From Myxococcales bacterium (GTDB taxonomy: Bacteria; Myxococcota; Myxococcia; Myxococcales; 40CM-4-68-19), in assembly GCA_036518615.1 (NCBI GenBank), contig DATDMU010000186.1, positions 1-63,267 on the forward strand: 63,267 bases of DNA, read 5' to 3'. The notes beneath the pieces are model-generated. The model worked only from the letters and a program-made list of their open reading frames with translations, ran no database searches and had not been told where the DNA came from. Shown one piece after another: positions 36,711-60,749 of this stretch. The stretch's first letter is position 1, and each line of letters opens with the position of its first letter. The position numbers and the translations under genes were made by a program.

Positions 36711-38950
36711 TCAGACGATGCCGGCGCGCGCGAAGGGAATGCTGCGAATCCGCTGCCCGGTCAGCGCGAAGATGGCGTTCGCGATCGCCGGCGCCACCGG
36801 CGGGACTCCCGGCTCGCCGATGCCGCCCGGAGGCCCGTCGCTCTCGACGATCTCCACGTGCGTGCGCCGCGGCGCCTGCCCGATGCGGACGAGCTTGTAG
36901 GAATCGAAGTTCCCCTGCTCGGTGACGCCGTTCTTCATCGTCGCGCCGCCGTAGAAGGCGTGGCTCATGCCGAAGATCACCGCGCCTTCCATCTGCGAGC
37001 GCGCCCGCTCCGTATCGACCACGGTCCCGGCGTCCGCCGCGAGCCAGACTTCGTCCACGGCGATCTTTCCCCGCGCGTCCTTCACCACCGAGACGACCAC
37101 GGCCACGTAGGTGAGGAAGCTGCGGTGCGCCGCGAGCCCGAGCGCGCGCCCCTTGCGCTCGCTCCAGTTCGCCATGCGCGTGACCCGCTCGATGACGTTG
37201 CGGTAGCGCCCGGCGTCCACGGGGTGCTTCTCCAGCGGCGCGCCGTAGTTGCGCAGCTTCTCCACCCCCAGCTCCTCCAGGCTGACGATCCGCGCCGGGC
37301 CGAAGATCTCCAGCAGGTTCTCGCGCGGATCGACGCCGCGCGCGTGCGCCAGCTCGTCCATGAACGATCCCGCCGAGAAGCCGTGGAAGATGTTGTAGAC
37401 CGAGCGCAGCCAGCCGATGCGCACGTGCGCCGCGGCATCGCACGTCTCCGCACGCACGTTGGGGATGAAGAGCGGCAGGTCGGTGACGCCCTGCTGCAGA
37501 TCGTCCGGCCCGGGGCCCTTCACGTTCGGCGCCATGGTGTTGGCGATGGGCGGAAACGCGGTGCGCTGCCGCCAGGCGATGACCTTGTTCTGCGCGTCGA
37601 GACCGGCGGTGAGGAGCTGCGTGTTGACCGCGTTGTAGTAATCATGGCGCAGGTCGTCCTCGCGGGTGAACTGCACCCGCACCGGCGCGCGCGCCTCGCG
37701 CGAGAGGAAGGCCGCCTCGCCCACGAAGTCCGCCTTGGACTTGCGCCCGAACGCGCCGCCGAGCAGCGTCACGTGGCAGGTCACCTTCGACTCGTCGAGC
37801 CCGAGGACCTTCGCCGCCTCGGTGCGGGCCGCCTGCGGGTTCTGCGTGGACGCCCACACCTCGCAGGCGCCGTCGGCGTAGCTGGCGATGCAGGCGGGCG
37901 GCTCCATCGAGACGTGCGCGAGATGGGGCACGTGGTACTCCGCCTCCACCTTGCGCGCGGCATGCGCGAGCGCCTGCTCCACGTCGCCGACGTTGCGCGC
38001 GGGCTTGCCGGCAGCGTGAACGGCGCGGCTCAGCTCCTGCGCGTAGCTTTCCGAGTCGTAGACGGCGTTGTCGCCGGGGTCCCACTCGATCCGGAGAGCG
38101 TTGCGGCCCCGGATGGCGGCCCAGGTGTTGGTGGCGAGCACGGCCACGCCGCCCCAGGGCTGGAAGCGGTACGGCTTCGACGGCTCCGGCATGCGCACCA
38201 CCTTCTTCACGCCGGGGATGGCAAGCGCCGCCCTGTCGTCGACGCTGCGGATTTTCCCGCCGACCACCGGCGGACGGGCGATCACAGCGACCAGCATGCC
38301 GTCCATGCGCACGTCCGCGCCGAAGCGCGCCTTGCCGGTGACGATGTCCTTGCCGTCCACCAGCGGCAGATCGCGGTAGACGTGCTTCATCTCCGAGCGC
38401 GGCCGCGGCTTCGCCGAATCGGGCACCGGCAGCTTCGCCGCCGCCTCGGCGAGCTCTCCGAACGGGAGCGACTTCCTGCCGTTCCAGACCGCGTGGTCGT
38501 GCGCCTGCAGCCTGGCCGCGGGCACGCGCCACTTCTTCGCCGCCGCGGCGATCAGCATGGTGCGCGCCGTCGCGCCCGCCTTGCGCAGGTCGTCGTAGGC
38601 GTTGCGGATGCTGCTCGATCCGTCGGTGTTCTGGTCGCCGTACTTCTTGTCTCCCACCGCCTGCTCGATGGCGACGCGCGAAGGGTCCGCCCCCATCTCG
38701 TCGGCGATCAGCGCGGGGATGGTGCTGCGCACGCCCTGGCCCATCTCCGAGCGGGCGCAGACGATGGTGAGCGCGCCGTCGCTGGCAAGGTGCACGAAGA
38801 CGTTGGGGCGGAAGCCTTCCGAGGCATTCTTGAGGGCGGCATCGCCGGGCTTCGGCTTGCGCGTGCTCTTGCCGCTGGGCTCGTCCGCGAAGATGCGGCC
38901 GCCGATGACCGAGAGCGCGAGGCCGCCCACGAACGTGCGCCGGGAGAGGG

Positions 38951-38954
<4 letters not shown>
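36711..38954 (-). CDS. iorB: Molybdopterin-dependent hydroxylase large subunit (IorB / aldehyde oxidase-xanthine dehydrogenase family), Tat-exported
   Basis: ATG 38954 gives Tat signal [19 protein letters not shown]. Family motifs [34 protein letters not shown]. Substrate unknown. Confidence 0.9.
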
Positions 38955-39417
<463 letters not shown>

Positions 39418-39421
<4 letters not shown>

Positions 39422-40044
39422 GGACGCGCTCCTTCCGGCGGGCACTCCGCGCCGGTGTCCACCCAGGCCTGCATCAGATCTCCGAGCTGCTCCTGCGTCC
39501 CCGGCGCCGGCTCGCGGCCGTGGCCCGGCTGCCATCCCCAGCTCACCAGATCGTCGAGCCGGTTGTGGTCGACCACGTCCTGGAGGCTGCGGTTGCCGTT
39601 GCGGGACTTGTCCTTCATCTGCTCGCAGATGGCGTGCGGCGACTTGCCCACCCACGCCATCTTGCGCGGCGCGAGCTGCCAGTGCGGCGCGCCGGGAATC
39701 CGCGCCAGCTCGAGGTTCTTGTCCTGGTGGCAGCCGGTGCAGCGCATGCCGGGGATTCCGGTGTCGAGGGGGCCGCGGACGACCGGCGGATCGTGGACGT
39801 GCATGTCGGCGCCCGAGCGAGGCGTGTCGCCGTCGGGATGGCAATTCGCGCAGCGCGGGTGCAGGAAGACGCGGCTCGCCTCGAGGAAGAGGGCGCGGGA
39901 CCGCTCCGCGCGATCGCCGATCTGCGCGAACGCCGCGGGCGCCCTCAGCGCGCCGGAAGCGGGCGGGGCCGCCGCTGGTTGCGCGGTCGCCGCGGGCTTC
40001 TGCGACGCGCAGGCTGCAAGGAGGACGAAGACGAGCTTGCGCAC
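39418..40044 (-). CDS. Diheme c-type lipoprotein, third subunit of the IorAB-type operon
   Basis: Lipobox VLLAAC. Two CXXCH motifs (CANCH, CTGCH). The stop overlaps the iorA GTG (GTGA). Confidence 0.75.
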
Positions 40045-40112: not shown

Positions 40113-41840
40113 TCACTCCTGCGGGAAGTTCATCTTCCTGAGGAAGACCTTCCACCTGTCATCGCCGTGCAGCGACCGGAACCAGAAGCTCCTCACCTCG
40201 GTCTCTCCAATCGTGAGATCGCGATCCGCGACGGCACGGTCGAGCCACTGGAATGCCTTGTCGCGATCCCCCATCCATCCATACGCGTGGGCCAGCGCCA
40301 CCGGATCCGGTCTCGGCTGCGCCTGCAACTCGTCCAATAGCGCATGGGCTTCATGCGAGCGCCCCAGGGAATGCAGCGCTGCTGCGATACCGTCTTCGAC
40401 GCCTGCAGGTGAACCCGGAGCCTGGCGGTACCTCTCGAGAGCCGCTGCGGACTCCCCCTGCGCGAGGAGCGCGTCAGCCAGACCCCGCGCAGCATTCTGT
40501 GCGTCGGGGGTGAGCTGCATCGCGCGTTCAAAGGTCGCACGGGCCGCAGCGTTCTTGCCCGCGTCGAGCTGCAACTGACCCAGCTTGATGGCGGAATGGC
40601 CGAGCGGATCGAGGTCGACCGCCCGCTCCGCGGCCGCCAGCGCCTCGGCGGTCCTGCCGAGATTGTCGAGCAGAATGGCATATCTCCGCCAGGCATCCGG
40701 ATCTCCGGGGCACAGCTGCACCGCGCGAACGAGGTCCTGCTCCGCACCCGTCCAGTCCCAGCGAAGCACCTGCCGGAGAAAGCCGCGCGTGGAAAGGCCG
40801 TCACAAAGGTCGGGTGACAGCAGCAGCGCCTTCTGCGCTGCCGCCATGGCCTTCTCCGCCGTTGCGAGCGCCTCGGCCTGCGTGTCGGCGGCTGTCGCGA
40901 CCAGGTAGAGCGGTACGCCAAGAGCGGCCCACGCCGGCGCGAATCGGGAATCCAGCTCCAGCGCCTTCTCATAAGCCGCGACTGCACGGACGAAGTTTTC
41001 ACCCGAGAACCGGCGATAGAAGCGCTCACCCAGTAAGTATTGGTTGTACGCCTCCGGCGAGGTCCGGGGCACCGGTTGTGGCGCGCCAGCGCGGCCGCCG
41101 AGCAGCTTCCCCTCGAGCGACTCGACGACCGCACGCGCGATCTCGTCCTGGATGGCGAAGACATCGGTCAGCTCGCGGTCGAAGCGCCGGGCCCAGAGCC
41201 GCTCGCCCGTGGCGGCCTTCACCACCTCGGCCGTGATCCGCAATCTCGCCTGGTCCCGGCGCACGCTCCCTTCGAGGAGATAGGTGACGCCGAGCATCCG
41301 GGCGATTTCGGCGGGCGCCTCGTTGCGCCCCTTGAAGAAGAACGACGAGGCTCGGCCCGGAACGCGCAACCCGTCCACGTTCGAGAGCACCGTCAGGATC
41401 TCTTCCGCGACGCCGTCGGAGAAGTAGTCCTGATCGTGCGCGGGACTCAAGTCGGCAAACGGCAGGACGGCGATCGACGGCGCGTCGGCCTTGCTCGTAT
41501 TTCCGGAGGCGCTTCGAAGCAGGACCCAGACGATTGCGGGGGCGGCGGCGAGCAGGCCGACGCCCACGAGCAGCAGGGTCAGACGCGCGCCGTGCGCCTG
41601 CGCGGAAGCCGTGCGCGAGATGCCACTCGCGTTGACGTCGAAGATCCATGCAAGCGCCACGACGACGGGAAGGCCTGCGGCCAGCGCGACGACGACCCAC
41701 GACAAGACGACGTCGGGCCAATGCAGGCCGTGCATGACCGGCTCGACGATCTGGAGGACCGCGAACGCGGCGACCCCGTAGCCGAGCACCGCCCGGAATA
41801 CGCGCCGGCGCTTGAGTTCCGTGAAAAGCGGAAGCTCCAC
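40113..41840 (-). CDS. Membrane-anchored TPR-repeat protein
   Basis: N-terminal [25 protein letters not shown] plus two further TM helices. Periplasmic [22 protein letters not shown] module. C-terminal TPR-like helical repeats. Confidence 0.8.
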
Positions 41841-43668: not shown

Positions 43669-45456
43669 ATGACACCACTCCGATTGCGCTCCATCGTCGC
43701 ATTGGTCGCTCTCGCAATCATCGCCGCTGCCGCGCCTTCCTTCGCCGTCAGCGGACAGACGCATCTCGACCCCACCACGCTGACGAAGTACCTCGATCCG
43801 CTTCCGGCGCCCGCGAGGCTCGACGGGACCGTCGCGCAGACCGTCACCATGTCGGAGCTCACCCAACAGGTCTTGCCCTCGAACTTCAAGGCGGGCCCTT
43901 ACGGCGGAAAGACGCTGGTGTGGGGCTACAACAACTCGTACCCCGGTCCCACCATCGTCGCGCGCAGAGGCACGGCATCCAGGCTCACGTACGTGAACAA
44001 CCTGGTCAACCCGGCATTGCTGAAGTACCTGCCCATCGACCAGACGCTCGATTGGGCCGATCCGCTCGGCTGCCACATGGCGTCGTCGTGTGACACGCAG
44101 CGCTACACGGGTCCCGTCCCGACGGTGGTCCACTTCCACGGCGGCGAGGTGCCCTCCGCTTTCGACGGGCACCCCGAAACGTGGTTCACCAACGGCTTCG
44201 CCTACGTGGGCCCGGACTGGGTTGCGCAGACGTATACGTATCCGAACGCGCAGGAAGCTTCGACGTTCTGGTACCACGACCACACCATCGGCATCACCCG
44301 GCTGAACGTATACGCGGGGCTCGCCGGCTTCTATCTCCTGCGCGATCCCAACAACGAGCCCGCCAACCTGCCGTCGGGCGCCTACGAGCGTGAGATCGTC
44401 TTCCAGGATCGCTCGTTCGATACCAGCGGCCAGATCATGTATCCGGACCAGGGCGAGGGCGGCCACCCGTTCTGGGTGAAGGAGTTCTACGGAGACGTGG
44501 CGGTGGTGAACGGCAAGGCCTGGCCGTACCTGAACGTCGAGCCGCGGCGTTACCGGTTCCGGATGCTGAACGGGTCGACGACGCGCACCTACACCATCCA
44601 GCTGCAGACCACGTCGGGAAGCGCCGGCCCGGCCATCTGGCAGATCGGCACCGACGGCGGCCTGCTCAACACGCCCATCCAGATCAGCTCCATCTCGATC
44701 GCGCCGGGCGAGCGCATCGACGCCATCGTCGACTTCAGCGGCAAGAGCGGCACCTCGTTCCTGCTCAAGAATGGCGACGGCACGCGCGGCACCTGGAGCT
44801 CGTCGGCGCTCTCCGAGCTGGTGAAGATCAACGTCTCGCTCCCGCTCAACGGGTCGGACACGAGCCTCAACCCGGCCACCGGCCCCAACCTGCGTCCCAA
44901 CAATCCCATCGTGCAGCTCTCCGCGACCGTGACTTCGGCCACGCCGACACGGCAGATGTCGCTGGAGAAGGACCGCAGCGGCGGCGGCTTCCTGCTCAAC
45001 GGCCTGCACTTCAACGACACCGTCACCGAGACGCCGCGGGTCGGCTCGACCGAGGTGTGGCAGATCAACAACCACACGGGCGACATGCACCCCATCCACC
45101 TCCACCTGGTCGAGTTCCAGGTCTACAAGGACGGCAGCGGATACCACGACGGCTGGGGCGGCGGCAGCGGTTGGGGCAGCAGCCCCAGCGGGACCGACCC
45201 GAACGACGTCGGCTGGAAGGACACCATCCAGGTGCCGGGCTGGGGCACCGTGACCATCGTCGTGCGCTGGGCGCCGTTGAATACGCCGGCGGGCGGCGTG
45301 CAGCCGGGCCAGAACCTCTACCCGTTCGACCCGACCGCGGGCATCGGCAAGCTCGACGCCTTCGGGTTCCCCGGCGGACCGGGATACGTGTGGCACTGCC
45401 ATCGCATCGAGCATGAGGACAACGAGATGATGCGGCCGTATCTCGTGGTTCCTTGA
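43669..45456 (+). CDS. Three-domain multicopper oxidase (CotA/bilirubin-oxidase-like)
   Basis: Signal peptide MTPLRLRSIVALVALAIIAAAAPSFA. Copper motifs VVHFHGG, WYHDHT, HPIHLHL, WHCHRIEHEDNEMM. Confidence 0.9.
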   Translation: MTPLRLRSIVALVALAIIAAAAPSFAVSGQTHLDPTTLTKYLDPLPAPARLDGTVAQTVTMSELTQQVLPSNFKAGPYGGKTLVWGYNNSYPGPTIVARRGTASRLTYVNNLVNPALLKYLPIDQTLDWADPLGCHMASSCDTQRYTGPVPTVVHFHGGEVPSAFDGHPETWFTNGFAYVGPDWVAQTYTYPNAQEASTFWYHDHTIGITRLNVYAGLAGFYLLRDPNNEPANLPSGAYEREIVFQDRSFDTSGQIMYPDQGEGGHPFWVKEFYGDVAVVNGKAWPYLNVEPRRYRFRMLNGSTTRTYTIQLQTTSGSAGPAIWQIGTDGGLLNTPIQISSISIAPGERIDAIVDFSGKSGTSFLLKNGDGTRGTWSSSALSELVKINVSLPLNGSDTSLNPATGPNLRPNNPIVQLSATVTSATPTRQMSLEKDRSGGGFLLNGLHFNDTVTETPRVGSTEVWQINNHTGDMHPIHLHLVEFQVYKDGSGYHDGWGGGSGWGSSPSGTDPNDVGWKDTIQVPGWGTVTIVVRWAPLNTPAGGVQPGQNLYPFDPTAGIGKLDAFGFPGGPGYVWHCHRIEHEDNEMMRPYLVVP

Positions 45457-45482
45457 CGGAGAGAACGTCGTCGAAGTGCGGG

Positions 45483-47774
45483 ATGAGCCGACGGGGAGTC
45501 GCCCTCCCCGTCGCCCTCGCGCTGTCGCTGCCGTTCGCCTCGGCGCGCGCCGGCGCGGCGGAGGATTCTCGCGACGAGGACTGCGCCCGCTGCCACGCGC
45601 AGCTCGCGGAGAAGTACGCGTCGCGGCGCTACGTCCATGCCGCGCTGAGGCAGCGCCGGTGCGACGACTGCCACCTTCCGCACGGCCCACAGCCGCGGCT
45701 GGTCCTCAAGGGCGACGGCGTCTGCATCGGTTGTCACGCCGCCCGCGATCTCGGCAGCAACCTGCGCTGGGTCCATGCGCCGGTGCGGAAGGGCTCCTGC
45801 ACGAGCTGCCACGATCCGCATGGCTCGGACGTGCCGCACATGCTGAAGGCGGAGGGCAGCGCAGGATGTTTCTCCTGCCACGATCGCGCGCCATTTCAGC
45901 GCAGCACCGTCCACCCCGTGCTCGCGCGCGAAGGGTGTGGAGCGTGCCACGCGCCGCACGGCTCGCAGGTCAGGGGACTGCTCTCCGCGTCCGAGGGGAC
46001 ACTCTGTCGCACTTGCCACCCCGGCGATGCCCGGTTCGCCGCGGCCCACGGCGGCCGCACCGTCGAGACCTGTGGAACCTGCCACGATCCGCATTCGTCC
46101 GATCGGCCCAGGCTCCTCGAGCGATCGCTGCATGCGCCCGTCGCACAGGGGAACTGCAGCGCCTGCCACGCGCCGCCGACCTCGGCGAATCCGCTCGCAG
46201 TGGTCAGCGCCTGCGAGAGCTGTCACCAGGCGGCGTCGCTCTACGCGGGCGGCCCGGTCCGGCACGGGTCCGGCATTTCCCGGGAGTGCTCGACCTGCCA
46301 TGAACCGCACGCCTCGGAAAATCCCAAACTGACCAGGGCGCCCGGCGACGCGCTGTGCGTTCCCTGCCACCGCGCGCTCATCCGCAAGAAGGAGCACCCG
46401 CACTCTCCCATGCAGGCGGGCTGCGTGTCGTGTCATCCGCCCCACAGCGGGAAGAAGAAGCTGCTCTTCGTTTCCGTTCCCGTCCTCTGCCGATCCTGTC
46501 ACCCACGCGCGGCCGGTGGCGACGAGACGGCGCATCTTCCGTTTGCGGCGGGCGAATGCACCGCATGCCACGACGCGCATGGCTCGGATGCACCGGCAAT
46601 GATGAAGGCGCCCCTCGGCCGCGTCTGCTTCGGCTGCCACTCCGACGCCGAGGCGCGCTTCGCCACCAGATACACGCACGCGCCGGTCGCGGAGGGAAAC
46701 TGCGCGGCGTGCCACTCCGGACACGCGGGGACCTCGGCGAACCACCTCCGCGCGCCCGCCGCTGCGCTCTGCGACGGATGCCATGCCCGGCTGACCAGGG
46801 AGCCGGCCGCCACGACCCACGCGTCGTTCGACGCGCAGACCTGCCTCGGCTGCCACGACCCGCACGGATCGGACGTGGCGGGAATGCTGCGCGAGGAGTC
46901 CGCGCGGGGTGGCGCACCAGCGCCTGCGCCCGACCGGACCGGCCCGTGCGAGACTTGCCACGCCTCCGTCGCAGCGCGGAAGGTGAGCCATCGGCATCCC
47001 GCCATGCAGGGCGGATGCACCACCTGCCACGACGCACACACCGCGAGCGCGCGGCCACGAGTGCAGGAGCGGTGCGCGAAGTGCCACGAGCTGGACGAAG
47101 CGGACTTCGTGCGCAAGCACATGGGGTACCCGACTTCGAAGGCGCGCTGCACCGGCTGCCACGACCCGCACGGCTCCGACAGCCCGGGAATGCTCCGGGA
47201 CGAGGTGCACGCGCCGGTGGCCCGGAAGCAGTGCGACGCCTGCCACGAGGAGCCCGGCTCGCGGACGCCGCTCGGGTTGAAGCAGGAGGGACTTGCGCTC
47301 TGCGGCGCGTGCCACGCGAAGATGGTCTCGGCCGCGTTCGACAGGACTCGCCTCCACCAGCCGGTTGCCGAGGGAAGATGCCTCGACTGCCACACTCCGC
47401 ACGCCTCCCGGGAGCGCGGCCTCCTCAAGGCGGGGATGGCCGCCACCTGCGGCGCGTGTCACCAGGACACCATCGAGCGGTCCTCGCCGGCGAAGCATCC
47501 GCCCGCCGGCCGGTGCACGCAGTGCCACGAGCCGCACGCATCGGACTTCCCGCTCCTCTACGTGACCTCGACGGAGGAGGCGACGTGCCGCCGCTGCCAT
47601 TCGGGGCAAGGCCACCCGCACCAGCTCTCCGCGCGCCAGCATCCGCGCAATCCCAACGTGCCGATGGACTGCATGAGCTGTCACCGCGCGCACGGCACGC
47701 GCTACGAGCATTTCCTTCCCGTCGCGCGGAAGGATCAGCTCTGCGTGCGCTGCCACGTCTCGCGCGGGAAGTGA
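45483..47774 (+). CDS. Giant multiheme c-type cytochrome with 31 CXXCH motifs
   Basis: I counted 31 CXXCH motifs in the translation. Signal peptide MSRRGVALPVALALSLPFASARA from ATG 45483. The track ORF opens at TTG 45453, overlapping the oxidase stop. Confidence 0.9.
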   Translation: MSRRGVALPVALALSLPFASARAGAAEDSRDEDCARCHAQLAEKYASRRYVHAALRQRRCDDCHLPHGPQPRLVLKGDGVCIGCHAARDLGSNLRWVHAPVRKGSCTSCHDPHGSDVPHMLKAEGSAGCFSCHDRAPFQRSTVHPVLAREGCGACHAPHGSQVRGLLSASEGTLCRTCHPGDARFAAAHGGRTVETCGTCHDPHSSDRPRLLERSLHAPVAQGNCSACHAPPTSANPLAVVSACESCHQAASLYAGGPVRHGSGISRECSTCHEPHASENPKLTRAPGDALCVPCHRALIRKKEHPHSPMQAGCVSCHPPHSGKKKLLFVSVPVLCRSCHPRAAGGDETAHLPFAAGECTACHDAHGSDAPAMMKAPLGRVCFGCHSDAEARFATRYTHAPVAEGNCAACHSGHAGTSANHLRAPAAALCDGCHARLTREPAATTHASFDAQTCLGCHDPHGSDVAGMLREESARGGAPAPAPDRTGPCETCHASVAARKVSHRHPAMQGGCTTCHDAHTASARPRVQERCAKCHELDEADFVRKHMGYPTSKARCTGCHDPHGSDSPGMLRDEVHAPVARKQCDACHEEPGSRTPLGLKQEGLALCGACHAKMVSAAFDRTRLHQPVAEGRCLDCHTPHASRERGLLKAGMAATCGACHQDTIERSSPAKHPPAGRCTQCHEPHASDFPLLYVTSTEEATCRRCHSGQGHPHQLSARQHPRNPNVPMDCMSCHRAHGTRYEHFLPVARKDQLCVRCHVSRGK

Positions 47775-47778
47775 GGAC

Positions 47779-48672
47779 ATGCGGATCCGTCGCGCCGCCG
47801 CGCTTCTTGCCAGCCTCTGCGCCGTCGCCTGCGCGCACGGCGTGACCTACGCGCGCACGGCAGGGTTGAAGCACGAGCGATCGATCTACACCGACGAGCG
47901 GCGCGGCCGGCTGGAGGCGCCGGAAGGAGTGGCCTGCGCAGACGATGGAACGCTCATCGTCGCGGACAGCGGTCACGGGCGGCTCGTCAAGTACACGTGG
48001 CGGGACGGTGCGCTGGACGGCGGAGCGGAGATCAAGCTGCCGCAGCTTTCGTATCCGACGCGGATCCAGCTCGACGGGGCGGGCAACCTGTTCGTGCTCG
48101 ATCGCAAGCTGCGCCGCATCGGGCGCATCGACCGGGCGGGCCGTTTTGCGGGCTACCTCGACGCGGGGGGCGAGCCTCCGGCTGCGCCGATCGCCTTCAA
48201 GGCGGGCGGCGCCCGCGTCTACCTGCTCGACGCGCCCGGGCGCCGGCTCCTCGTCGTCGAACCCTCCGGCCACGTCGCCCGCGCAGTCGGATTACCGGAC
48301 TCCGGCTCCTTCACCGACCTCGCGCTCGGCACAGCCGGCAGCGTCTACGCCATCGATGCGACGACTTCGACGGTGTGGGCGCTGGACGCGGGCGGCAGCG
48401 CATTCCGCCGCCTGACGCCGAGCCTCGAGGCGCAGATGCGCTTTCCCACCGACATGGCGAGCGACGGCCGCGGCCATCTCTTCGTCGTCGATCACGGCGG
48501 CGGCGCGATCGCGGTCCTCGGCGAGGACGGCAGCTTCCAGGGCCGCGCACTCAGTCCGGGCCACGCCGACGGCCTCCTCTCCTACCCCGCCCAGGTCTGC
48601 GTCACCGGAGGCTTCCTCTTCGTCGCCGACCGCGGCAACAGCAGGGTGCAGGTGTTCGAGATCATGAGGTGA
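47779..48672 (+). CDS. NHL-repeat beta-propeller lipoprotein
   Basis: Starts 5 nt after the cytochrome stop. Signal/lipobox MRIRRAAALLASLCAVAC. Blades LIVADSGHGRL, LFVLDRKLRRI, VYLLDAPGRRL, VYAIDATTSTV, LFVVDHGGGAI, LFVADRGNSRV. Confidence 0.8.
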   Translation: MRIRRAAALLASLCAVACAHGVTYARTAGLKHERSIYTDERRGRLEAPEGVACADDGTLIVADSGHGRLVKYTWRDGALDGGAEIKLPQLSYPTRIQLDGAGNLFVLDRKLRRIGRIDRAGRFAGYLDAGGEPPAAPIAFKAGGARVYLLDAPGRRLLVVEPSGHVARAVGLPDSGSFTDLALGTAGSVYAIDATTSTVWALDAGGSAFRRLTPSLEAQMRFPTDMASDGRGHLFVVDHGGGAIAVLGEDGSFQGRALSPGHADGLLSYPAQVCVTGGFLFVADRGNSRVQVFEIMR

Positions 48673-48699
48673 CGAGGAGTCTGCGGGTGGAGCGCTCGA

Positions 48700-49851
48700 C
48701 TACTTGCCCGGGTCCTTCACCTCCGGGAACTTGTCGAACTCGACGTTCCAGAGCTTGCCGTCCACCTTTTCCACCTTGCGGACGTAGATGGTCTGCACGA
48801 TGTCCCGCGTCTCCGCATCGATGCGGATGGGCCCGCGCGGGCTCTGGCGCGTCCATCCCTTGAGCGCCGCCATCGCCTTCTCGCCGTCGATTGCCCCGCC
48901 CGCGGCCTTGCGCACGATCTCGTCGATGGCGGCCATGCCGTCGTAGCCCGCCACCGCCATGAAGTTGGGCCGCTTCTCTCCCGCGACCCTGGCGTACGCC
49001 GTCAGGAAGGCCTTGTTCTCCGGCGAATCGTGCGCCGCCGAATAGTGGAAGCTGGTGATCACTCCCAGCGTGGGGTCGCCCATCGCTTCCAGCACGCCGT
49101 CGTCGGTGAGGTCGCCGGTGGAGATGACCTTGATGCCGGCGCGCGCCAGCCCGCGCTCGCTGAAGCCCTTCATGAAAGCGATGCCCGGCTCGCCCGCGGG
49201 CAGGAAGACGAACACCGCCTCCGGCTGCGCGTCCTTGATGCGCTGCACGAAGGGCGCGAAGTCCGGGTTGCTCAGCGGCACCCGCGCCGAGTCCACGATG
49301 GTCCCGCCGAGCCCGGTGAACACCTTCTTGAACGTCCCTTCCGCGTCGAGCCCGGGCGCATAGTCGGCTACCAGCGTATAGACCTTCCGGATGCCGTTCT
49401 TGAACGCCCATTGCGCCATCGGCGCGGAGAGCTGGGCGATGGTCATCGAGACCCGCACCACGTACGGCGATTTGGTGGTGATGACCGAGGCGGCGGCGTT
49501 CATCACGATCATCGGCTTCTTCGCCTGCGTGGCGACGGCGGTGGCGGCCAGCGCGTTGGGGGTGAGCCCGAAGCCTGCGAGGAAGTCGGCGTGGTCGCGG
49601 GTGATCAACTCGGCGGCGAGGCGCTTGGCGACGTCCGGGGCGGGGCCGGTGGTGTCGCGCTCGAGGATCTCCACCTTGCGGCCGGCCACCTCGCCGCCGT
49701 GGCTCTGCAGCCAGGCCTTCATGCCGTTCTCGATCTGCGCGCCGTATTCGGCGAAGGGGCCGGAGAACTCGGCGATGAGGCCGATCTTCACCGGCGGCGG
49801 CGCGGCGTTCGCGGCAGAGGCCAGCAAGAGGCAGGCGACGGCGAGCTTCAT
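48700..49851 (-). CDS. Branched-chain amino acid-type ABC substrate-binding protein (LivK/LivJ family)
   Basis: Signal peptide MKLAVACLLLASAANA. VKIGLIAEFSGPFAEYGAQIENGMK and type I PBP layout. Confidence 0.88.
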   Translation of the reverse strand: MKLAVACLLLASAANAAPPPVKIGLIAEFSGPFAEYGAQIENGMKAWLQSHGGEVAGRKVEILERDTTGPAPDVAKRLAAELITRDHADFLAGFGLTPNALAATAVATQAKKPMIVMNAAASVITTKSPYVVRVSMTIAQLSAPMAQWAFKNGIRKVYTLVADYAPGLDAEGTFKKVFTGLGGTIVDSARVPLSNPDFAPFVQRIKDAQPEAVFVFLPAGEPGIAFMKGFSERGLARAGIKVISTGDLTDDGVLEAMGDPTLGVITSFHYSAAHDSPENKAFLTAYARVAGEKRPNFMAVAGYDGMAAIDEIVRKAAGGAIDGEKAMAALKGWTRQSPRGPIRIDAETRDIVQTIYVRKVEKVDGKLWNVEFDKFPEVKDPGK

Positions 49852-49911: not shown

Positions 49912-52401
<2,490 letters not shown>

Positions 52402-53319: not shown

Positions 53320-54291
53320 CTACGGACCTGTCGTCGCGCCGAGCACCTGGATCTGCGCTGGAAGACGTTCCCGGAGAGGCCACCCCACGAAGAGGCGATC
53401 CAGCTCGCTCGACCAGAGACCCGTGCGCGCGCCGGCGCGAGTCTGAATCCGCCCGAGGCGCGCGTATCGCGCCGCAGGGCTCGCGTCGAAGACGTCCACG
53501 TACCCCTCGCCTCCGATGACGTACACCCGATCTCGCGCAGCGTCGTAGAAGAGGTCGTCGCTGTCACCGGCGCAGCGACGGGCGGCGACCTGATCCATCG
53601 ACCCGGTATCGAAGACGAGGAGCCGCGCCGGATGGCGCACGGCGACGAACAGCCGATGATTTCTCTCGTCGAGGTCCATCGGGTAGTTGTCGGCCAGGTT
53701 CCCGAGCGAGACGCGCTTGACGATCGAGCGCTGCTTGCGGTCGATCACCAGGATCTCGCGCGTCGGCGGCATGTTGACGAAGATGCGAGGCCCGCCCTGC
53801 TCCAGGCGAAACGACTCCGGGTGCCCCGGGAGCGGGATCTCCCCGAGGAGCTTCATGCTCGCGGGATCGATCATCCCGAGCGCCCCTTCCCCGTGACCGA
53901 CGTAGAGCACACCCGCCGCCGCATCGAATCTGAGGTTGTCGGCGTCGGGCAGGTTGGAGAGCGTGGCCAGCGGCCGATACTCTTTGTCGTCGAACGCCGT
54001 CACCGTTCCGCCCGCGCGCGTGGCGACGACGATGCGGTGGACCGAGGGCAGGTACGCGACGCCCTGCGGCTCGTTCAAGTCGGGGATGCTGGCGACGCGC
54101 TTGCCGGCGGCGAGGTCGACGACCTCGAGCGTGTGGTTGCCGAGAGCGGAGACGAAGAGCCGCTTTCCGGCCGCGTCCACCGCGAAATGATCGATGCGGC
54201 GCCGCACGCCGGGCAGCGCGATCGCTTGCACCTCCTTCAGCATCGGCGACGCCGCCAGGGCCAGCCCCAGTGCGACTCCCGGGATGAGCAT
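53320..54291 (-). CDS. YVTN/YncE-like beta-propeller protein, secreted
   Basis: ATG 54291 with GGGGAG upstream. Signal peptide MLIPGVALGLALAASP. Repeats RLFVSALGNHTLEVVDL, RIVVATRAGGTVTAFD, VLYVGHGEGALGMID, RIFVNMPPTREILVID, RLFVAVRHPARLLVFD, RVYVIGGEGYVDVFD. Confidence 0.75.
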   Translation of the reverse strand: MLIPGVALGLALAASPMLKEVQAIALPGVRRRIDHFAVDAAGKRLFVSALGNHTLEVVDLAAGKRVASIPDLNEPQGVAYLPSVHRIVVATRAGGTVTAFDDKEYRPLATLSNLPDADNLRFDAAAGVLYVGHGEGALGMIDPASMKLLGEIPLPGHPESFRLEQGGPRIFVNMPPTREILVIDRKQRSIVKRVSLGNLADNYPMDLDERNHRLFVAVRHPARLLVFDTGSMDQVAARRCAGDSDDLFYDAARDRVYVIGGEGYVDVFDASPAARYARLGRIQTRAGARTGLWSSELDRLFVGWPLRERLPAQIQVLGATTGP

Positions 54292-54356
54292 CCCGCTCCC
54301 CTTACGTCTCGCCGCCTTCTCTTGCAAGCGGAGCCGCGTGGCGCTTTAAGCAGGAG

Positions 54357-55334
54357 GTGTTCCACTTCGCGCTCGCGCTGCTCGCCGCGGGATCGCTCGG
54401 GCTCGACCCTGTCGCGGACGTGCCGCTGCCCGGCGGCGCGTCGCGTTTCGATTATCAGGCCGTCGATCCGGTCAATCGCCGCCTGTACATCGCGCACCTC
54501 GGCGACAGCTCGCTGGTCGTCTTCGATCTCGACGCCCAGCGCGTCGCGCAGGAGATCCCGGGCCTTCCCGGCGTGCACGGCGTCGCCGCCGCACCGGAAC
54601 TGCACCTCGTCTTCGCGACGGCGACGGGCGAGAAGACCCTCGCCTTCATCGACGACAGGACCTGGAAGGTGCGGTCGCGCGTGCACGCGGGCGAGTACCC
54701 GAACGGGCTCGCCTTCGATCCCGGCTCGGAAAGGGTCTTCGTCTCGAACAACCGCGGCACGGGAGTGGCCGTCGTCGACGTGAAGACCGCACGTCCCCTG
54801 CCGGGAATCGACGTCGGCGGCGGCGCGGGCAACACGCAGCACGACGCCGGCTCCGGTCGCGTGCTGGCGGCCGTCCACGGAAAGCCGTACCTCGCCGAGA
54901 TCGATCCCGGCGCCTCGCGGGTCGCGGGGCGCATCGCCTTGCGCGGCGTCAGCGGATGTCACGGGCTCCTGGTCGCCTCCGGCTTGCGCCTGGCGTTCGC
55001 CGCCTGCCATGGAAAGAGCGCGCTTCTGGTGGTGGTCGACCTGCGCGAGCGCCGGCAATCGATCGCCTTGCCGCTGCCGGCAGGGATCGACGTGCTCGCC
55101 TTCGATCCGGGCCTGGGAAGACTCTACGCAGCCTCCGAGACCGGCACCGCCGTCGTTTTCGCCGTCGCCGCCGATGGCCACTTGACCGAGCTCGGACGCG
55201 GGTTCGTCGGTCCCAACGCGCATTCGGTCGCCGTCGACCCGAGGACCCATCGCGTGTATTTCCCGATCGCGAACTCCGGCGGGCGGCCCGTGTTGCGGAT
55301 CATGCAGCCCCGCGTCGTTCCACCGAGACGCTGA
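54357..55334 (+). CDS. YVTN/YncE-like beta-propeller protein (paralog-like, divergent orientation)
   Basis: Repeats RLYIAHLGDSSLVVFDL, LVFATATGEKTLAFID, RVFVSNNRGTGVAVVDV, RLYAASETGTAVVFAV, RVYFPIANSGG. The GTG 54357 start overlaps an AGGAGG, so the exact start is uncertain. Confidence 0.7.
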   Translation: MFHFALALLAAGSLGLDPVADVPLPGGASRFDYQAVDPVNRRLYIAHLGDSSLVVFDLDAQRVAQEIPGLPGVHGVAAAPELHLVFATATGEKTLAFIDDRTWKVRSRVHAGEYPNGLAFDPGSERVFVSNNRGTGVAVVDVKTARPLPGIDVGGGAGNTQHDAGSGRVLAAVHGKPYLAEIDPGASRVAGRIALRGVSGCHGLLVASGLRLAFAACHGKSALLVVVDLRERRQSIALPLPAGIDVLAFDPGLGRLYAASETGTAVVFAVAADGHLTELGRGFVGPNAHSVAVDPRTHRVYFPIANSGGRPVLRIMQPRVVPPRR

Positions 55335-55581
55335 TCGCGGACCGCGCGTGGCGATCCGCAGAGCGGCGGAACGCGGGGCGCGACTCTTGCGGGCCGCGCG
55401 GCGGATGCCTGCAATTCTTGCGAAGAGCAGACCCTGCACGGAGGGCGAGCCACGTCGATGCGCCCGCGCTCCGGGAAGCGCGGGCGCGCCGTCGAGTGCG
55501 GACACGTGGCGCAACCCTCGACAGGACCACCGCGCGCCAGAGGGCGCAGCGGCTGGCACGGCTCATGCCACTGCCAGAGAC

Positions 55582-58317
55582 ATGAAACCGGTCCCCTGTC
55601 CCCCGACGCCGGCTTCCTTTTCCGCGTGGCATGCGAGAGACGTCGCGGAAATCGCCGAGGAGCTCCGCACCGACCTCGACAGGGGCCTTTCCACGGAAGT
55701 GCTTCCGGCCGCCGCCACCGAGGCCGTTGCCACGATGAAACGGGGGCCGTGGCCCATCTTCGTCAATCAGATCAAAGGCGGCGTCATCCTCGTCCTGTTG
55801 GCCGCCACCGGCATCATGCTGGCGCTCGGCCATTACGGTGACGCGATCGCAATCGGCGCATCCGTCGTTTTCTCCGTCGTCTTCGGTTTTCTCACCGACT
55901 TCCGCGCCGAGCGCGCGCTGGAAGCCTTGCGCAACCTGACGGCGCCCAGCGCGCGCGTCGTGCGCGGCGGCCTGGAACGGGAGCTGCCCGTATCCGAGAT
56001 CCGCCGCGGCGACCTCCTCGTGCTCTCCGGAGGGCAGATCGTCGCCGCAGATGGCCGCATCGCAGCCGCGCGCGACCTGCAGGTCGACGAGTCCGCCCTC
56101 ACCGGCGAGAGCGCTCCCGTCACCAAGTCTGCCGACGCGGTCGTCGCCGATGCCGCGCTTCCCGACCGCTCGGACATGGCCTACGCAGGCACGACCGTCG
56201 TGAGCGGGTGGGGGCACGCAATCGTCACCGGGACGGCGGCCGAGACCGAGCTCGGGCGCATCGGCAAGCTCGTCGCCGATCAACGGCGTGAACAGACTCC
56301 CCTGGAGAAGCAGGCGGAGCAGCTCGGTCGCCGCCTTGCGCTCCTCGCCATCGTCCTCTCGGCGTTGGTGACCCTCCTCGGCCTTTTGCGTGACGTCCCC
56401 TTCTGGCTGATGCTGGAGACGGGAGTGCTCCTCGCGATCGCCGCGATCCCGGAAGGACTTCCTGCCGTCACGACGATCGCGCTCGCGGCGGGCGTCCGCC
56501 GGATGGCGAAGACAGGGAGCCTCGTCCGCCGCCTCGCCTCGGTCGAGACGCTCGGGTCGACGACGGTGATCTGCACGGACAAGACGGGGACGCTCACCGA
56601 GAACGTCATGCGCGTGACGCGCATCGTCCTTCCCGGAGCTGAGCTCGAGGTCACAGGCGCTGGTTACGAGCCCGAGGGCGCGTTCCTCCAGGGCGGGCAT
56701 CCCGTCGCCGCGACGGCGGTTCCCGGTCTCGTCAGGCTCCTCGAGATCGCTGCCGTCTGCAACGATGCGAAGCTCGAGTCGCACGGAGGCTGGCACGTCC
56801 ACGGCTCGTCGACCGAAGGAGCGCTCCTCGCGCTCGCCGGAAAGGGCGGCGTGGAAGCGCGGCTCTTCGAGCGGTTGCGCGCGATCGGGTTCTCGTCGAG
56901 TCGCAAGCGCATGTCCGTCGTCGCGCGCGGCCGCGACGGCGCGCTCCACTCGTTCGTGAAGGGCTCGCCGGAGGCGATCGCGAGTCTCGTCACCCGGGTT
57001 CTCGGGCGTTGCGGGGAGGAATCGATCGACGACGACGTCCGCGCGCGCCTGCGCAGCCGCGCCGCCGCGCTCGGTGAATCGGGCTATCGGGTGCTCGCCC
57101 TCGCGGAACGCAGTCTGGATGCGGGCGACGATCCCGACGCAGCCGAAAGAGACCTGGTCTGGGTCGGGATGGTCGGCCTCATCGATCCTCCTCGCGCCGA
57201 GGTGCGCGAGGCGATCGGCGCGTTGACCGGAGCCGGGATCCGGACGGTGATGGTCACGGGCGACCAGAAGGGAACCGCCATGGCCGTGGCACGACATCTC
57301 GGCATCGCCCAGGCCGGAGACCTCTGCATCGATTCGAAGGAGCTTGCGACCTACACGGCGGAGCACCGGTGGGAAGATCTCCGCCACACCGCGGTGTTTG
57401 CGCGGGTGACGCCCGAGGACAAGCTCTCCATCGTCCGCGCGCTTCGCGAGGCCGGTCAGATCGTCGCGATGACCGGAGACGGAATCAACGACGCGCCCGC
57501 GCTGCGTGCCGCCGACATCGGAATCGCCATTGGACGCGGCGCCGCGGACGTCGCGCGCGAGTCGTCGGACCTCGTGGTCACCACCGGGAACTATGCGACG
57601 CTGCCCGTCGCCGTGGCCGAAGGGCGCCGGATCTACGCGAACATCCGCCGCTCGGTGCACTTCCTCCTGCTCTGTACCCTCTCCACCATCGGCGTGATGC
57701 TGGTGGCCGTCGTCACCAACCTGCCCTTGCCGATGAGCCCGCTCCAGCTCCTCTGGTTGAATCTCGTCGTCCACATCTTTCCGGCAATGGGCCTCGTCCT
57801 CAGCCCCGGAGAGCCCGGCGTGATGCGCCGCCCGCCACGCAACCCGACGGAGCCAATCCTGACCTGGCGGGCACTTGGCGGCATCGCCCTGCGCAGTGCG
57901 TTGGTGTCCGGGGTGGTCCTGTGGAGCTACGCAGCCCGGTCCGGTGGTGACGCGGGACCGGCTGCGCAGACGCTGGTGATGTCGACGCTCGCTCTCGCGC
58001 TCCTCGTGCAGACCCTCCCCATGCTCTCGGAGACCGCGCCTTTCTGGAGAGCAGGCCGGAGCATCACCGCGAGCTTCGCATTGTCGCTCGCGGGAGGCCT
58101 CGCGCTCCAGGCGCTCGCGCTCTACTGGCCCTTTCTCGCCTCCATTCTCGTCACCGCGGCGCTCCCTGCAGCGACCCTGGCGCAGATCGCGGGAATCTCC
58201 GTTCTCGCGCTCGCCCTCGTGGAAGCAGGCAAGTGGCTTCTATCGCGGAATCGTGATTCTCATATGCCGCCCGCGAACGAGGAGATCAGACAGCTCGTCC
58301 GGGAACATCAGGGCTGA
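55582..58317 (+). CDS. Cation-transporting P-type ATPase (P2-like, Ca/Mg-type architecture)
   Basis: ATG 55582. TGES, PEGLP, ICTDKTGTLT, MTGDGINDAPAL, 10-TM layout. Ion specificity cannot be deduced. Confidence 0.9.
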   Translation: MKPVPCPPTPASFSAWHARDVAEIAEELRTDLDRGLSTEVLPAAATEAVATMKRGPWPIFVNQIKGGVILVLLAATGIMLALGHYGDAIAIGASVVFSVVFGFLTDFRAERALEALRNLTAPSARVVRGGLERELPVSEIRRGDLLVLSGGQIVAADGRIAAARDLQVDESALTGESAPVTKSADAVVADAALPDRSDMAYAGTTVVSGWGHAIVTGTAAETELGRIGKLVADQRREQTPLEKQAEQLGRRLALLAIVLSALVTLLGLLRDVPFWLMLETGVLLAIAAIPEGLPAVTTIALAAGVRRMAKTGSLVRRLASVETLGSTTVICTDKTGTLTENVMRVTRIVLPGAELEVTGAGYEPEGAFLQGGHPVAATAVPGLVRLLEIAAVCNDAKLESHGGWHVHGSSTEGALLALAGKGGVEARLFERLRAIGFSSSRKRMSVVARGRDGALHSFVKGSPEAIASLVTRVLGRCGEESIDDDVRARLRSRAAALGESGYRVLALAERSLDAGDDPDAAERDLVWVGMVGLIDPPRAEVREAIGALTGAGIRTVMVTGDQKGTAMAVARHLGIAQAGDLCIDSKELATYTAEHRWEDLRHTAVFARVTPEDKLSIVRALREAGQIVAMTGDGINDAPALRAADIGIAIGRGAADVARESSDLVVTTGNYATLPVAVAEGRRIYANIRRSVHFLLLCTLSTIGVMLVAVVTNLPLPMSPLQLLWLNLVVHIFPAMGLVLSPGEPGVMRRPPRNPTEPILTWRALGGIALRSALVSGVVLWSYAARSGGDAGPAAQTLVMSTLALALLVQTLPMLSETAPFWRAGRSITASFALSLAGGLALQALALYWPFLASILVTAALPAATLAQIAGISVLALALVEAGKWLLSRNRDSHMPPANEEIRQLVREHQG

Positions 58318-58540
58318 AATGCTGTCGTTCTTCGACGGGCGGCGAAACGACGACGACCGGGCAGGGGCACTGAACCGCCACCTTCGCCGCAACCGAGCCG
58401 AGCGCGAACGAGAGCCGGTTTCGGGCGCGGGAACCCATCACCAGAAAATCGCACCCCTTTTGCTTCGCATGCAACAGACGACGGATTTGCGTGATGCCAT
58501 GGCCGACTCCGTGGTTTTCGCCACGGGGGCTTGCATCCAT
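58286..58540 (-). pseudogene. Universal stress protein (UspA-family) C-terminal half only; probable truncated remnant
   Basis: The 84-aa ORF has CDFLVMGSRARNRLSFALGSVAAKVAVQCPCPVVVV, the C-terminal USP motif. The frame closes at a TAA ~75 nt upstream with no room for the N-terminal half. Its 3' end overlaps the ATPase 3' end by 32 nt. Confidence 0.45.
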
Positions 58541-58676
58541 CGTGCCTGCGCACTCCCGAGAGCCCTGCTGGCTGCGCGGAGCGACAGGACGTGAAATAGA
58601 CCCATCGGCCCGACGTTACTGCGCTGTCTTTCAGGCAATGCAGCAGGCGCCGCATCGACCAGAGGATGCTTGCCTC

Positions 58677-60749
58677 ATGTCCGAACATGTGACCAGACGC
58701 GATTTCTTGCGCGCTGCGGCGGCGATGGGTGCGACGTTCGCCTGGGGCAAAGCCTTCGCCGCGCCGTCGCGCAGACGATGGCTCGAGCGCCGCGACCTGT
58801 TCGCGGAAGGCGTTGCTTCCGGCGATCCGGCGCCGGACAGCATCCTTCTCTGGACGCGCGTGTCGGGCGCGGGACCAGCGACGGAGGTCCCCCTCACCGT
58901 CGAGGTGGCCGAGGACCCGGAGTTCACCCGCGTGATCGCCACGGCGCGGACCCGCGCGCTGGCCGCCGCCGATCACACCTGCCGCGTGCTCGTGGGCGGG
59001 CTGCGCCCGGCGCGAACGTACTGGTACCGGTTCGCCGATCGGCACGGCAACGGGAGTCGCGTCGGACGCACGCGCACGGCTCCTTCCGCCGACGACCCGC
59101 GGCCGGTGCAGTTCGCGTTCGTGAGCTGTCAGAACGTCTGCGAGGGCGCGCAGAACGCGTACCGGCGCATGGCGTACGAAGACGAGCGCGCGAAGCCGGA
59201 GGATCAGCTCTGGTTCGTGCTGCACCTCGGCGACTTCGTCTACGAGGTCGTCGACTACCCCGAGGACTTCAAGGACGGGCATCGCTACGACCGCCGCATC
59301 CGGCCGGCGGTCCGCTACCCGCAGGGCGAGAAGCTCAAGGTGGGCTTCCACATCCCCGTCACGCTCGAGGACTACCGGACGCTCTACCGATCCTATCTCC
59401 ACGACCCGGACATCCAGGACGCGCGGGCGCGCTGGCCGTTCGTCTCGATGTGGGACAATCACGAGTTCTCCTGGCTCGGCTGGCAGTCGTTCCAGCAGTT
59501 CGACGGGATCGATCGCCCTGCGCAGACGCGCAAGGTGATGGCGAACCAGGCCTGGTTCGAGTACCTGCCGGCGCGCCTCGACAAGCCGGCCCGCGGATGG
59601 CCGGAGCGCTTCGAGGCGCCTTCGGTGAAGGACGCGCCGATCGAACGGTTCGACGAGAACGGCCTGGGGCAGGAGCCGAACAACCTGGCCGCCATTCGCA
59701 GCCTGACCGGGTATCGGGCGTTGCGATTCGGGCGCCACGTGGATCTGCTGATCACCGATCAGCACTCGTATCGCTCGGCGGACCCCGGCGGCCGGAAGGA
59801 AGGAGCGGAGCTGGGGTCCAGGGACTTCCCGCAGACGGCCCCCGAAGAGTTGATGCAGGCGCTCGATGCCGGGCGGGAGCTCGCGGGCGGTCCGCCGGAC
59901 AAGCTCTCGTTTGGGGTCGAGATACCCAATTACCGCAAGAATGAGCGGGCGCAGACGATTCTCGGCGCCGAGCAGAAAGCCTGGTTCCTGAAGCGGCTCG
60001 CGGCATCGCACGCGACGTGGAAGGTGTGGGGCAACTCGGAGGGAACGCTGGACTCGCGGGCGGATCCGCAGAACCTGCCTGCCGGCACCGGCGCGCGCTG
60101 GCCCGGCAAGGGCTACGCCTCGCTCGGCGGCGGCGATTACGGAACGGCGTACATCGAACGGGCCGAGATCTACGACAAGGTGCGCGACAGCGGGATCACG
60201 GGCTTCGTCACGCTCTCCGGCGACCGGCACAGCTTCTGGGCGGGCCTCGCCGCGAAGGCCCTGCCGCCGGCTCCATTCGAGCCCGTCGGCGTGGCGTTCG
60301 TCGGCGCGTCGATCTCTTCGCCAGGCATGGTCGAGGCGCTCGAGCATCGTTTCCCGAAGGACCACCCGCTGCGGCCGCTCTACATTGCGGACGTCGCCGG
60401 GAAGATGAAGCCGGCCGTGAATCTCCTGATGCATCACGGCGTCCGCGCGTGCCTCGAGTACCAGCGCACCGGAGACGCCGCCGCGGCGCGGCGCGCGTCC
60501 AACCCCGACCTGGCGCCTCACCTCTCCTTCCTCGACATGGGCGGCCACGGCTACGCCATCGCCCGGTTCGACGCGAACGCGATGACCTGCGAGTTCGTCT
60601 GCATCCCGAGACCGCTCGAGCGCAGCGAAGGCGCAGACGGCGGACCGGTCCGCTATCGCGTCAGGCACCGGGCGGCGCTCTGGAGCGCGGGAGGCCGACC
60701 GCAGCTCGAGCAGCGTGTCATCGAGGGCGACCCCGACCTCGCGCTTTGA
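58677..60749 (+). CDS. phoD: PhoD-family alkaline phosphatase / phosphodiesterase, Tat-exported
   Basis: ATG 58677 gives Tat signal MSEHVTRRDFLRAAAAMGATFAWGKAFA. GVASGDPAPDSILLWTR, YWYRF, FVSCQN, HLGDFVYE, MWDNHEF, SGDRHSFWAG. Confidence 0.88.
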   Translation: MSEHVTRRDFLRAAAAMGATFAWGKAFAAPSRRRWLERRDLFAEGVASGDPAPDSILLWTRVSGAGPATEVPLTVEVAEDPEFTRVIATARTRALAAADHTCRVLVGGLRPARTYWYRFADRHGNGSRVGRTRTAPSADDPRPVQFAFVSCQNVCEGAQNAYRRMAYEDERAKPEDQLWFVLHLGDFVYEVVDYPEDFKDGHRYDRRIRPAVRYPQGEKLKVGFHIPVTLEDYRTLYRSYLHDPDIQDARARWPFVSMWDNHEFSWLGWQSFQQFDGIDRPAQTRKVMANQAWFEYLPARLDKPARGWPERFEAPSVKDAPIERFDENGLGQEPNNLAAIRSLTGYRALRFGRHVDLLITDQHSYRSADPGGRKEGAELGSRDFPQTAPEELMQALDAGRELAGGPPDKLSFGVEIPNYRKNERAQTILGAEQKAWFLKRLAASHATWKVWGNSEGTLDSRADPQNLPAGTGARWPGKGYASLGGGDYGTAYIERAEIYDKVRDSGITGFVTLSGDRHSFWAGLAAKALPPAPFEPVGVAFVGASISSPGMVEALEHRFPKDHPLRPLYIADVAGKMKPAVNLLMHHGVRACLEYQRTGDAAAARRASNPDLAPHLSFLDMGGHGYAIARFDANAMTCEFVCIPRPLERSEGADGGPVRYRVRHRAALWSAGGRPQLEQRVIEGDPDLAL

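Follow-up and report, generated by a model that had tools for sequence, protein, structure and literature searches.

Gene content of the locus

This analysis concerns three adjacent genes on contig DATDMU010000186.1 of a Myxococcales bacterium (assembly GCA_036518615.1), a stretch of 63,267 nucleotides (nt) referred to here as the window. The genes encode a multicopper oxidase, a 31-haem cytochrome c and an NHL beta-propeller protein, lie head-to-tail on the plus strand with gaps of 27 nt and 4 nt, and form an isolated plus-strand unit, the flanking gene on either side being on the minus strand. Since the window is ~70% G+C, genes were chosen by third-position G+C together with Pfam matches. 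The initial annotation described three exported proteins encoded on the plus strand with near-zero spacing, and all three open reading frames (ORFs) lie where it placed them. The gene boundaries also agree with it. An in-frame TTG (45453) overlaps the oxidase TGA to give TTGA, such that the cytochrome ORF begins at the oxidase stop, and the ATG of its signal peptide (45483) lies 27 nt further on (junction and spacer, 45453..45482, plus strand). The NHL start (47779) is 5 nt past the last base of the cytochrome stop codon (47774), leaving 4 nt between the two.

The first gene (43669..45456, plus strand) encodes a three-domain protein of 595 amino acids (aa) with a Sec-type signal peptide. It matches Cu-oxidase_3 with 53 bits and Cu-oxidase_2 with 63 bits (Pfam cut-offs 21 and 20.4), and its translation carries all four copper-ligand motifs, HFH, HDH, HPIHLH and HCHRIEHEDNEM, corresponding to the patterns HxH, HxH, HxxHxH and HCHxxxHxxxxM. 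Its top solved relatives are structures of Bacillus subtilis CotA (1gsk and 2wsd), matched at E = 1e-98 over residues 37-536, with bilirubin oxidase, PhsA and CueO ranking behind. The copper ligands and domain order are those of CotA and bilirubin oxidase-type enzymes. Unlike B. subtilis CotA, the protein is Sec-exported in a Gram-negative-type organism, falls within a Sec-exported clade, and contains a Gly/Ser/Trp-rich insert ahead of the last copper motif. It is an ordinary CotA-type multicopper oxidase of the CotA/bilirubin-oxidase subgroup. The initial annotation drew a parallel with the Geobacter multicopper proteins OmpB/OmpC, which extends to the general class; the nearest named relatives of the oxidase are CotA-like.

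The cytochrome gene encodes 763 aa and consists almost wholly of Paired_CXXCH_1 repeats (16 repeats, 454 bits in Pfam). The protein contains 68 histidines and 31 CxxCH motifs, the latter at intervals of 19-35 residues, with ~25 residues per haem. Its leader, beginning at the ATG at 45483, is of the signal-peptidase-I type, and no membrane anchor was found in the protein.

The third gene (47779..48672, plus strand) is preceded by GAGGA and encodes an exported protein of 297 aa with a Pfam NHL match. An AlphaFold2 (AF2) model of the protein (pLDDT 91) is a six-bladed propeller whose Foldseek matches are NHL domains. About 64 family members match at E<1e-40, and the window protein nests inside the neighbour-joining (NJ) tree of the family, where it is of the OscK type discussed below. 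The initial annotation called this protein a lipoprotein, a label that is doubtful because the signal peptide ends in A-V-A-C18, which is a poor lipobox compared to L-[AS]-[GA]-C, and because the cysteine occurs in only a few close relatives and is not conserved in the family. Most family members have A-x-A signal-peptidase-I sites instead.

The cytochrome-NHL pair and the osc cluster

The NHL family was used to collect related loci from one genome per species. The search was made with an alignment of 11 NHL proteins, a 27-protein alignment being too diverse, and returned 80 loci. In 77 of the 80, the NHL gene is immediately preceded by multihaem ORFs, with a gap of 203 nt or less in 74. The canonical order is a gene for a 26-haem cytochrome (~660 aa, 57 loci), a gene for a 16-haem cytochrome (~430 aa, 61 loci) and then the NHL gene. 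Clustering of all ORFs from these loci identified further conserved genes upstream in 48-65 loci, including a SurA/peptidyl-prolyl isomerase (PPIase) gene in 65, and an OmcS-sized hexahaem gene lies nearby in 18. The locus L014 (3-10837) illustrates the complete arrangement by Pfam: a YncE-like propeller, a 755-aa protein, a GNA1162/LpoB-like lipoprotein, a CsgG-like protein, a SurA/PPIC chaperone (the PPIase), the 26-haem cytochrome, the 16-haem cytochrome and the NHL protein. The last three form the most constant part of this eight-gene block (L007-L080), and their order recurs in Geobacter, Geomonas, Anaeromyxobacter, Nitrospirota, Acidobacteriota, Desulfurivibrionaceae, Deferrimicrobia and Rokubacteria. 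A protein of ~350 aa with weak NHL similarity directly follows the NHL gene in 11 loci, mostly of the Anaeromyxobacter type (for example L009 10823-11881, L010 10812-11852, L013 10815-11879 and L021 10886-11929), and may be a tandem propeller paralogue.

The eight-gene block matches GSU2500-GSU2493 of Geobacter sulfurreducens, the osc cluster. This cluster was reportedly described by Shen et al. in 2025 (Cell Chem Biol), work known to us via citing papers. In two of these papers, GSU2500-GSU2493 is given as oscD-K, the omcS-companion cluster (10.1101/2025.11.06.686851; PMC13194489). GSU2495 is oscI, encoding a protein of ~70 kDa with 26 haems, and GSU2494 is oscJ (PMC13194489; PMC2996986); both products are listed as periplasmic, by prediction (PMC13194489). 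From position and gene count, we infer that GSU2493 is the NHL gene, oscK. The roles proposed in one report are folding for OscH, secretion for OscE-G and morphology for OscD (PMC13194489).

The cytochrome-NHL pair in the window is homologous to the last three genes of this cluster, oscI, oscJ and oscK, a relationship absent from the initial annotation. The G. sulfurreducens proteins belong to the same families, with the same doubled-CxxCH repeats and ~25 residues per haem, and a ~300-aa NHL propeller gene stands directly downstream with minimal spacing in both cases. The window has one fused 31-haem gene in place of the 26 + 16 pair, ~11 haems fewer, and the OscD-H chaperone/channel block is missing, as is a nearby OmcS-like hexahaem gene. 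The gene upstream of the cytochrome is a multicopper oxidase in the window and a PPIase in the osc cluster. Searches with tblastn, using queries from 10 loci, found no homologue of OscE, OscF, OscG or OscH in the window, and there is no OmcS-like hexahaem gene among its ORFs, the other CxxCH ORFs of the window carrying only 1-3 motifs.

To describe the fusion, hidden Markov models (HMMs) were built from the 57 26-haem (OscI-type) and 61 16-haem (OscJ-type) proteins. Residues 15-522 of the window cytochrome are collinear with positions 24-536 of the 26-haem HMM. Scored by segment, residues 1-378 favour OscI (382 bits, against 231 for OscJ), residues 379-522 are ambiguous (113 against 85), and residues 523-763 score 275 bits with the 16-haem HMM (positions 181-421, aligned to residues 523-760) against 176 with the 26-haem HMM. 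These scores therefore identify an in-frame OscI-OscJ chimera of ~21 + 10 haems, in which a signal peptide and a GSU2495-like part with ~21 CxxCH motifs (45483..47048, plus strand) continue into a GSU2494-like C-terminal part with 10 (47049..47774, plus strand, stop codon included). A division into 15 + 16 haems, drawn from the envelopes of the full-length HMMs, was set aside in favour of the segment scoring. The chimera likely arose by recombination between internal repeats, with loss of the OscI tail and of both the leader and the first haems of OscJ; the window holds the single 31-haem ORF, and separate 26-haem and 16-haem genes are not present.

Fusions are common elsewhere in the family. 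Other fused forms among the loci have 22, 29, 31, 33 and 42 haems, a complete 42-haem fusion being found at L032 6737-9919, and one protein (P0292) is a PPIase-cytochrome fusion. A protein search with the window cytochrome, which missed the nearest relatives through its word filter, returned many proteins of ~1060 aa, a length that fits a full fusion, with haems left uncounted. The 42-haem fusions and ~1060-aa proteins come from GN15, Zixibacteria, Latescibacterota, Gemmatimonadota and Krumholzibacteria.

Seven other loci (L005, L006 and L168-L172) resemble the window in having a single fused cytochrome gene followed by the NHL gene, where the contig reaches that far, and oscD-H in none. The NHL proteins of this stand-alone group form one clade, sister to those of the canonical Anaeromyxobacter/Myxococcota loci (NJ tree, drawn without support values). 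The window pair is accordingly placed, on present sequences, in a stand-alone clade of Anaeromyxobacter-like Myxococcota that lacks the chaperone and channel genes. In the five of these loci whose contigs extend upstream, the genes there encode a response regulator, a gyrase/topoisomerase, a phosphatase, a SnoaL-like protein and a metallo-beta-lactamase-fold protein, with no oxidase among them. In L172 (1487-5808), topoisomerase IV/gyrase A- and B-like genes are found by Pfam a few kb upstream, and L006 (774-5191) has unannotated ORFs of matching size (827 and 673 aa) in the same position. The two loci may therefore share neighbours; if they are syntenic, the position of the pair is stable in that sub-lineage, unlike in the window.

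It is possible, although we consider it unlikely, that the pair still serves the biogenesis or charging of cytochrome nanowires, acting in trans, as a paralogue adapted to a different filament or condition, alongside a canonical osc/OmcS-like cluster elsewhere in the genome. The embedding of the NHL family in an osc block at 65 of the 80 loci, together with the OmcS-like genes near 18 of them, points in this direction, and the sister position of the stand-alone clade to the canonical Anaeromyxobacter clade suggests a duplication. Set against this are the lack of any osc (OscE-H) or hexahaem gene within the 63 kb of the window, and the loss of 11 haems along with the linked chaperone and channel genes, which suggests a changed role.

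Linkage of the oxidase to the pair

While the cytochrome and NHL genes are tightly coupled and conserved together, the oxidase does not travel with them. None of the 80 NHL-family loci has an oxidase homologue within 10 kb, and no oxidase lies upstream of the five closest stand-alone cytochrome-NHL pairs. Viewed from the other side, none of six close oxidase homologues whose neighbourhoods could be read (L001-L004, L165 and L166; 51-85% identity) has a multihaem cytochrome nearby. All six are solitary, and two are near copper-efflux or YHS genes. A metagenome scan added 80 more distant oxidase loci, none with an ORF containing three or more CxxCH motifs; these homologues have 43% identity or less, too distant to probe close relatives, and were used as background. 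In the metagenome-assembled genome (MAG) DATDDC01 of an Anaeromyxobacter species, which has both an oxidase orthologue (L002) and the pair (L005), the two are on different contigs with unrelated neighbours, and a comparison of flanks found no genes shared between the window and the related loci L001-L006. Near one 72%-identity oxidase homologue (L166 8001-17674) are a second Cu-oxidase gene, a CusB/CzcB-type adaptor with a YHS domain and an RND pump, and near another homologue of 72% identity (L165) is a YHS protein (14115-14291). These neighbours hint at a role in copper homeostasis for the oxidase clade.

The three-part module proposed by the initial annotation thus survives in part: the coupling of cytochrome and NHL genes is borne out (77/80 loci), and the oxidase drops away from it (0/80, 0/86 and 0/5), as the co-occurrence of all three genes, which had been put forward as a check, was not found in related genomes where the oxidase is concerned. 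Its remark that no characterised complex has this make-up is supported: none is known in which a multicopper oxidase occurs with both an NHL protein and a cytochrome of more than 20 haems. The comparison indicates that the oxidase is an evolutionarily independent neighbour that adjoins the pair only in this soil lineage. Since this gene arrangement is confined to a single lineage, it is most simply read as a recent operon rearrangement that brought unrelated genes together, and not as a conserved functional module.

The adjacency itself is genuine. An assembly chimera was considered, given that the repetitive cytochrome gene often breaks assemblies, as it does in contigs L168, L170 and L167, which stop within or at this gene. 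The junction is nevertheless crossed by single Logan contigs from independent runs of four soil metagenomes with 0-1 mismatch (X1 45142-47408, X4 45214-46867 and X3 45415-49000), and their depth is even on either side. In all four soil runs, depth rises ~15-fold over 35 nt at 45403-45440. This stretch encodes the conserved HCHxxxHEDxxMM sequence common to many other multicopper oxidase genes in the community, and the copper motif explains the spike, ruling out strain variation in the linkage as its cause. With these contigs in hand, a chimera is extremely improbable.

Could the three proteins nonetheless form a true module? In one version, the haem wire would pass electrons to the type 1 (T1) copper of the oxidase and on to O2, as a periplasmic outlet or overflow valve; in another, oxidase and wire would together oxidise Fe(II), Mn(II) or Cu(I). 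Thermodynamics would favour the transfer of electrons to a laccase-type T1 copper from bis-His haems of low potential. The tight packing on one strand, with the TTGA overlap, the 27-nt spacer and no terminator, counts in favour of such a module, as does the export of all three proteins. A described cluster for extracellular electron transfer, Uet of Tenderiales, also joins a cupredoxin, NHL proteins and multihaem cytochromes (10.1101/2022.05.06.490989). The module is still quite unlikely, as the oxidase is missing from all 80 + 5 cytochrome-NHL loci and cytochromes are missing near all 86 oxidase homologues, MAG DATDDC01 keeps the two apart, and oxidase homologues adjoin copper-efflux and YHS genes instead. 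The more specific proposal, in which a CotA-type oxidase recruited in this soil lineage would form the O2-reducing terminus of a 31-haem periplasmic wire held by an NHL propeller, is likewise quite unlikely, with nothing beyond adjacency to speak for it. If true, it would be a cytochrome-fed periplasmic oxidase of a kind not described before.

The likeness to Uet is one of composition. In 'Ca. Tenderia electrophaga' and Gallionella, a copper protein (the cupredoxin UetF), NHL propellers (UetH/I) and multihaem cytochromes occur together (10.1101/2022.05.06.490989; PMC10734462). The copper protein there is a cupredoxin, where the window has a laccase-type oxidase, and each cytochrome carries 3-11 haems; a beta-barrel and a PPIase also belong to the cluster, whose genes are conserved as a block (10.1101/2022.05.06.490989; PMC10734462). 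Uet provides a case in which copper proteins have been co-selected with NHL propellers and multihaem cytochromes.

Several observations weigh against treating oxidase and pair as separate units. Sampling of the closest relatives is thin, and contigs with more than 66% NHL identity end before the region upstream of the cytochrome gene. A separate promoter would not fit within the 27 nt and would have to lie inside the oxidase coding region. The pair therefore appears to rely on the promoter of the oxidase, and this dependence could be a sign of real functional recruitment. No terminator-like site was found between the oxidase and cytochrome genes, where sigma-70 and terminator scans are uninformative at 70% GC. 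With only 27 nt and no terminator ahead of the cytochrome gene, the oxidase is probably co-transcribed with the pair. No RNA runs containing the junction were found. Among the Osc proteins, functional assignment is described for OscD-H only (PMC13194489).

The wider surroundings consist of genes of other kinds. Upstream, Pfam identifies a glyoxalase-like gene (3-dmu-9_3-mt family), an NMT1-type solute-binding protein, a TPR protein and a molybdoenzyme. Of these, the molybdopterin-binding oxidoreductase subunit (36711-39287, minus strand) and the TPR protein (40113-41840, minus strand), which has a weak CcmH/CycH-type TPR match, flank a small ORF carrying two CxxCH motifs (39418-40044, minus strand); the three may constitute a periplasmic redox unit of their own. 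Downstream is a complete Liv-type ABC transporter, in which a LivM-type permease and a LivG-type ATPase share one ORF (50606-52400, minus strand), either as a fusion or as an effect of ORF calling at high GC. Beyond it, two divergent beta-propeller-like genes (53320-54327, minus strand, and 54288-55334, plus strand) have weak YncE/THOC3-propeller Pfam matches and are weakly similar to OscD-like propellers (tblastn, window 53.5-54.9 kb); a P-type cation ATPase (55186-58317) and a PhoD phosphatase (58374-60749) follow. Far upstream, an ORF of 185 aa (10060-10617, plus strand) with three CxxCH motifs has a weak cytochrome c7 match and lies just ahead of an AcrB-family RND pump (11233-14433, plus strand).

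Proposed roles and significance

Taken together, we consider it probable that the region joins two evolutionary units, a solitary CotA-type oxidase and a stand-alone, fused, osc-derived cytochrome-NHL pair. The first unit would be a periplasmic CotA-type multicopper oxidase, solitary in all relatives examined and in some of them near copper-efflux genes. The second would derive from oscI (26 haems), oscJ (16 haems) and oscK (NHL). In this Anaeromyxobacter-like lineage, recombination between internal haem repeats would have fused oscI in frame to oscJ, yielding a single 31-haem protein, and the pair would have become detached from the chaperone/channel genes oscD-H.

The cytochrome is best described as a peptide-minimised chain, predicted to be Sec-exported to the periplasm and to hold largely bis-His haems (68 histidines for 31 haems). 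We read it as an electron-transfer chain and not a catalytic cytochrome, because it has ~25 residues per haem and histidines enough for bis-His ligation. It may act as a long periplasmic electron relay or store. Its placement in the periplasm follows from the signal-peptidase-I leader and the lack of a membrane anchor or porin. An outer-membrane-spanning porin-cytochrome conduit (Mtr/Pcc/Ext-like), with the NHL protein as a surface lipoprotein, would place it differently. The cytochrome does have sub-threshold or partial matches to DmsE/MtrA-type and MtrC-domain models, which come from shared haem-packing motifs, and the N-terminal cysteine of the NHL protein could be lipidated. This conduit is highly improbable, since Pfam searches of all flanking ORFs found no beta-barrel gene within ~10 kb, the lipobox is poor and not conserved, and the Geobacter homologues GSU2495/GSU2494 are predicted to be periplasmic (PMC13194489). 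The absence of a nearby porin, the signal-peptidase-I leader and the periplasmic listing of those homologues likewise give no sign of the outer-surface location that the initial annotation suggested as one possibility.

The NHL propeller would be an obligate partner of the cytochrome, made by translational coupling and serving in docking or scaffolding. This role is suggested because the propeller gene is probably coupled in translation to the cytochrome gene and accompanies it throughout the NHL family. A docking- or scaffolding-like role has been proposed for NHL proteins in clusters of Desulfovibrio ferrophilus and Tenderiales (PMC5815863; 10.1101/2022.05.06.490989). In D. ferrophilus, NHL beta-propeller genes lie among multihaem cytochrome genes in DFE_0448-0451 and DFE_0461-0465, with comparable expression, and the propellers are proposed to stabilise a cytochrome complex; deletion of the cytochromes there gave no Fe(III)-oxide phenotype (PMC5815863; PMC9769857). 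Gene order and cytochromes differ from those of the window, and the likeness is one of composition.

On the reading that two units have been joined, what looked like a conduit of three parts is a laccase-type oxidase standing on its own next to a cytochrome-propeller pair that is conserved. The pair is tied to the osc cluster, which is itself linked to the assembly of OmcS nanowires. Within that cluster, the 26-haem/16-haem/NHL triplet varies least, as seen in Myxococcota, Desulfobacterota, Nitrospirota, Acidobacteriota and other phyla. OscI/OscJ-type cytochromes have repeatedly undergone fusion and shortening, and there is a stand-alone form that lacks the chaperone and channel genes. This form is a natural experiment, arguing that the cytochrome or cytochromes and the propeller are a self-sufficient functional unit, and the lineage may be well suited to the study of such a unit on its own.

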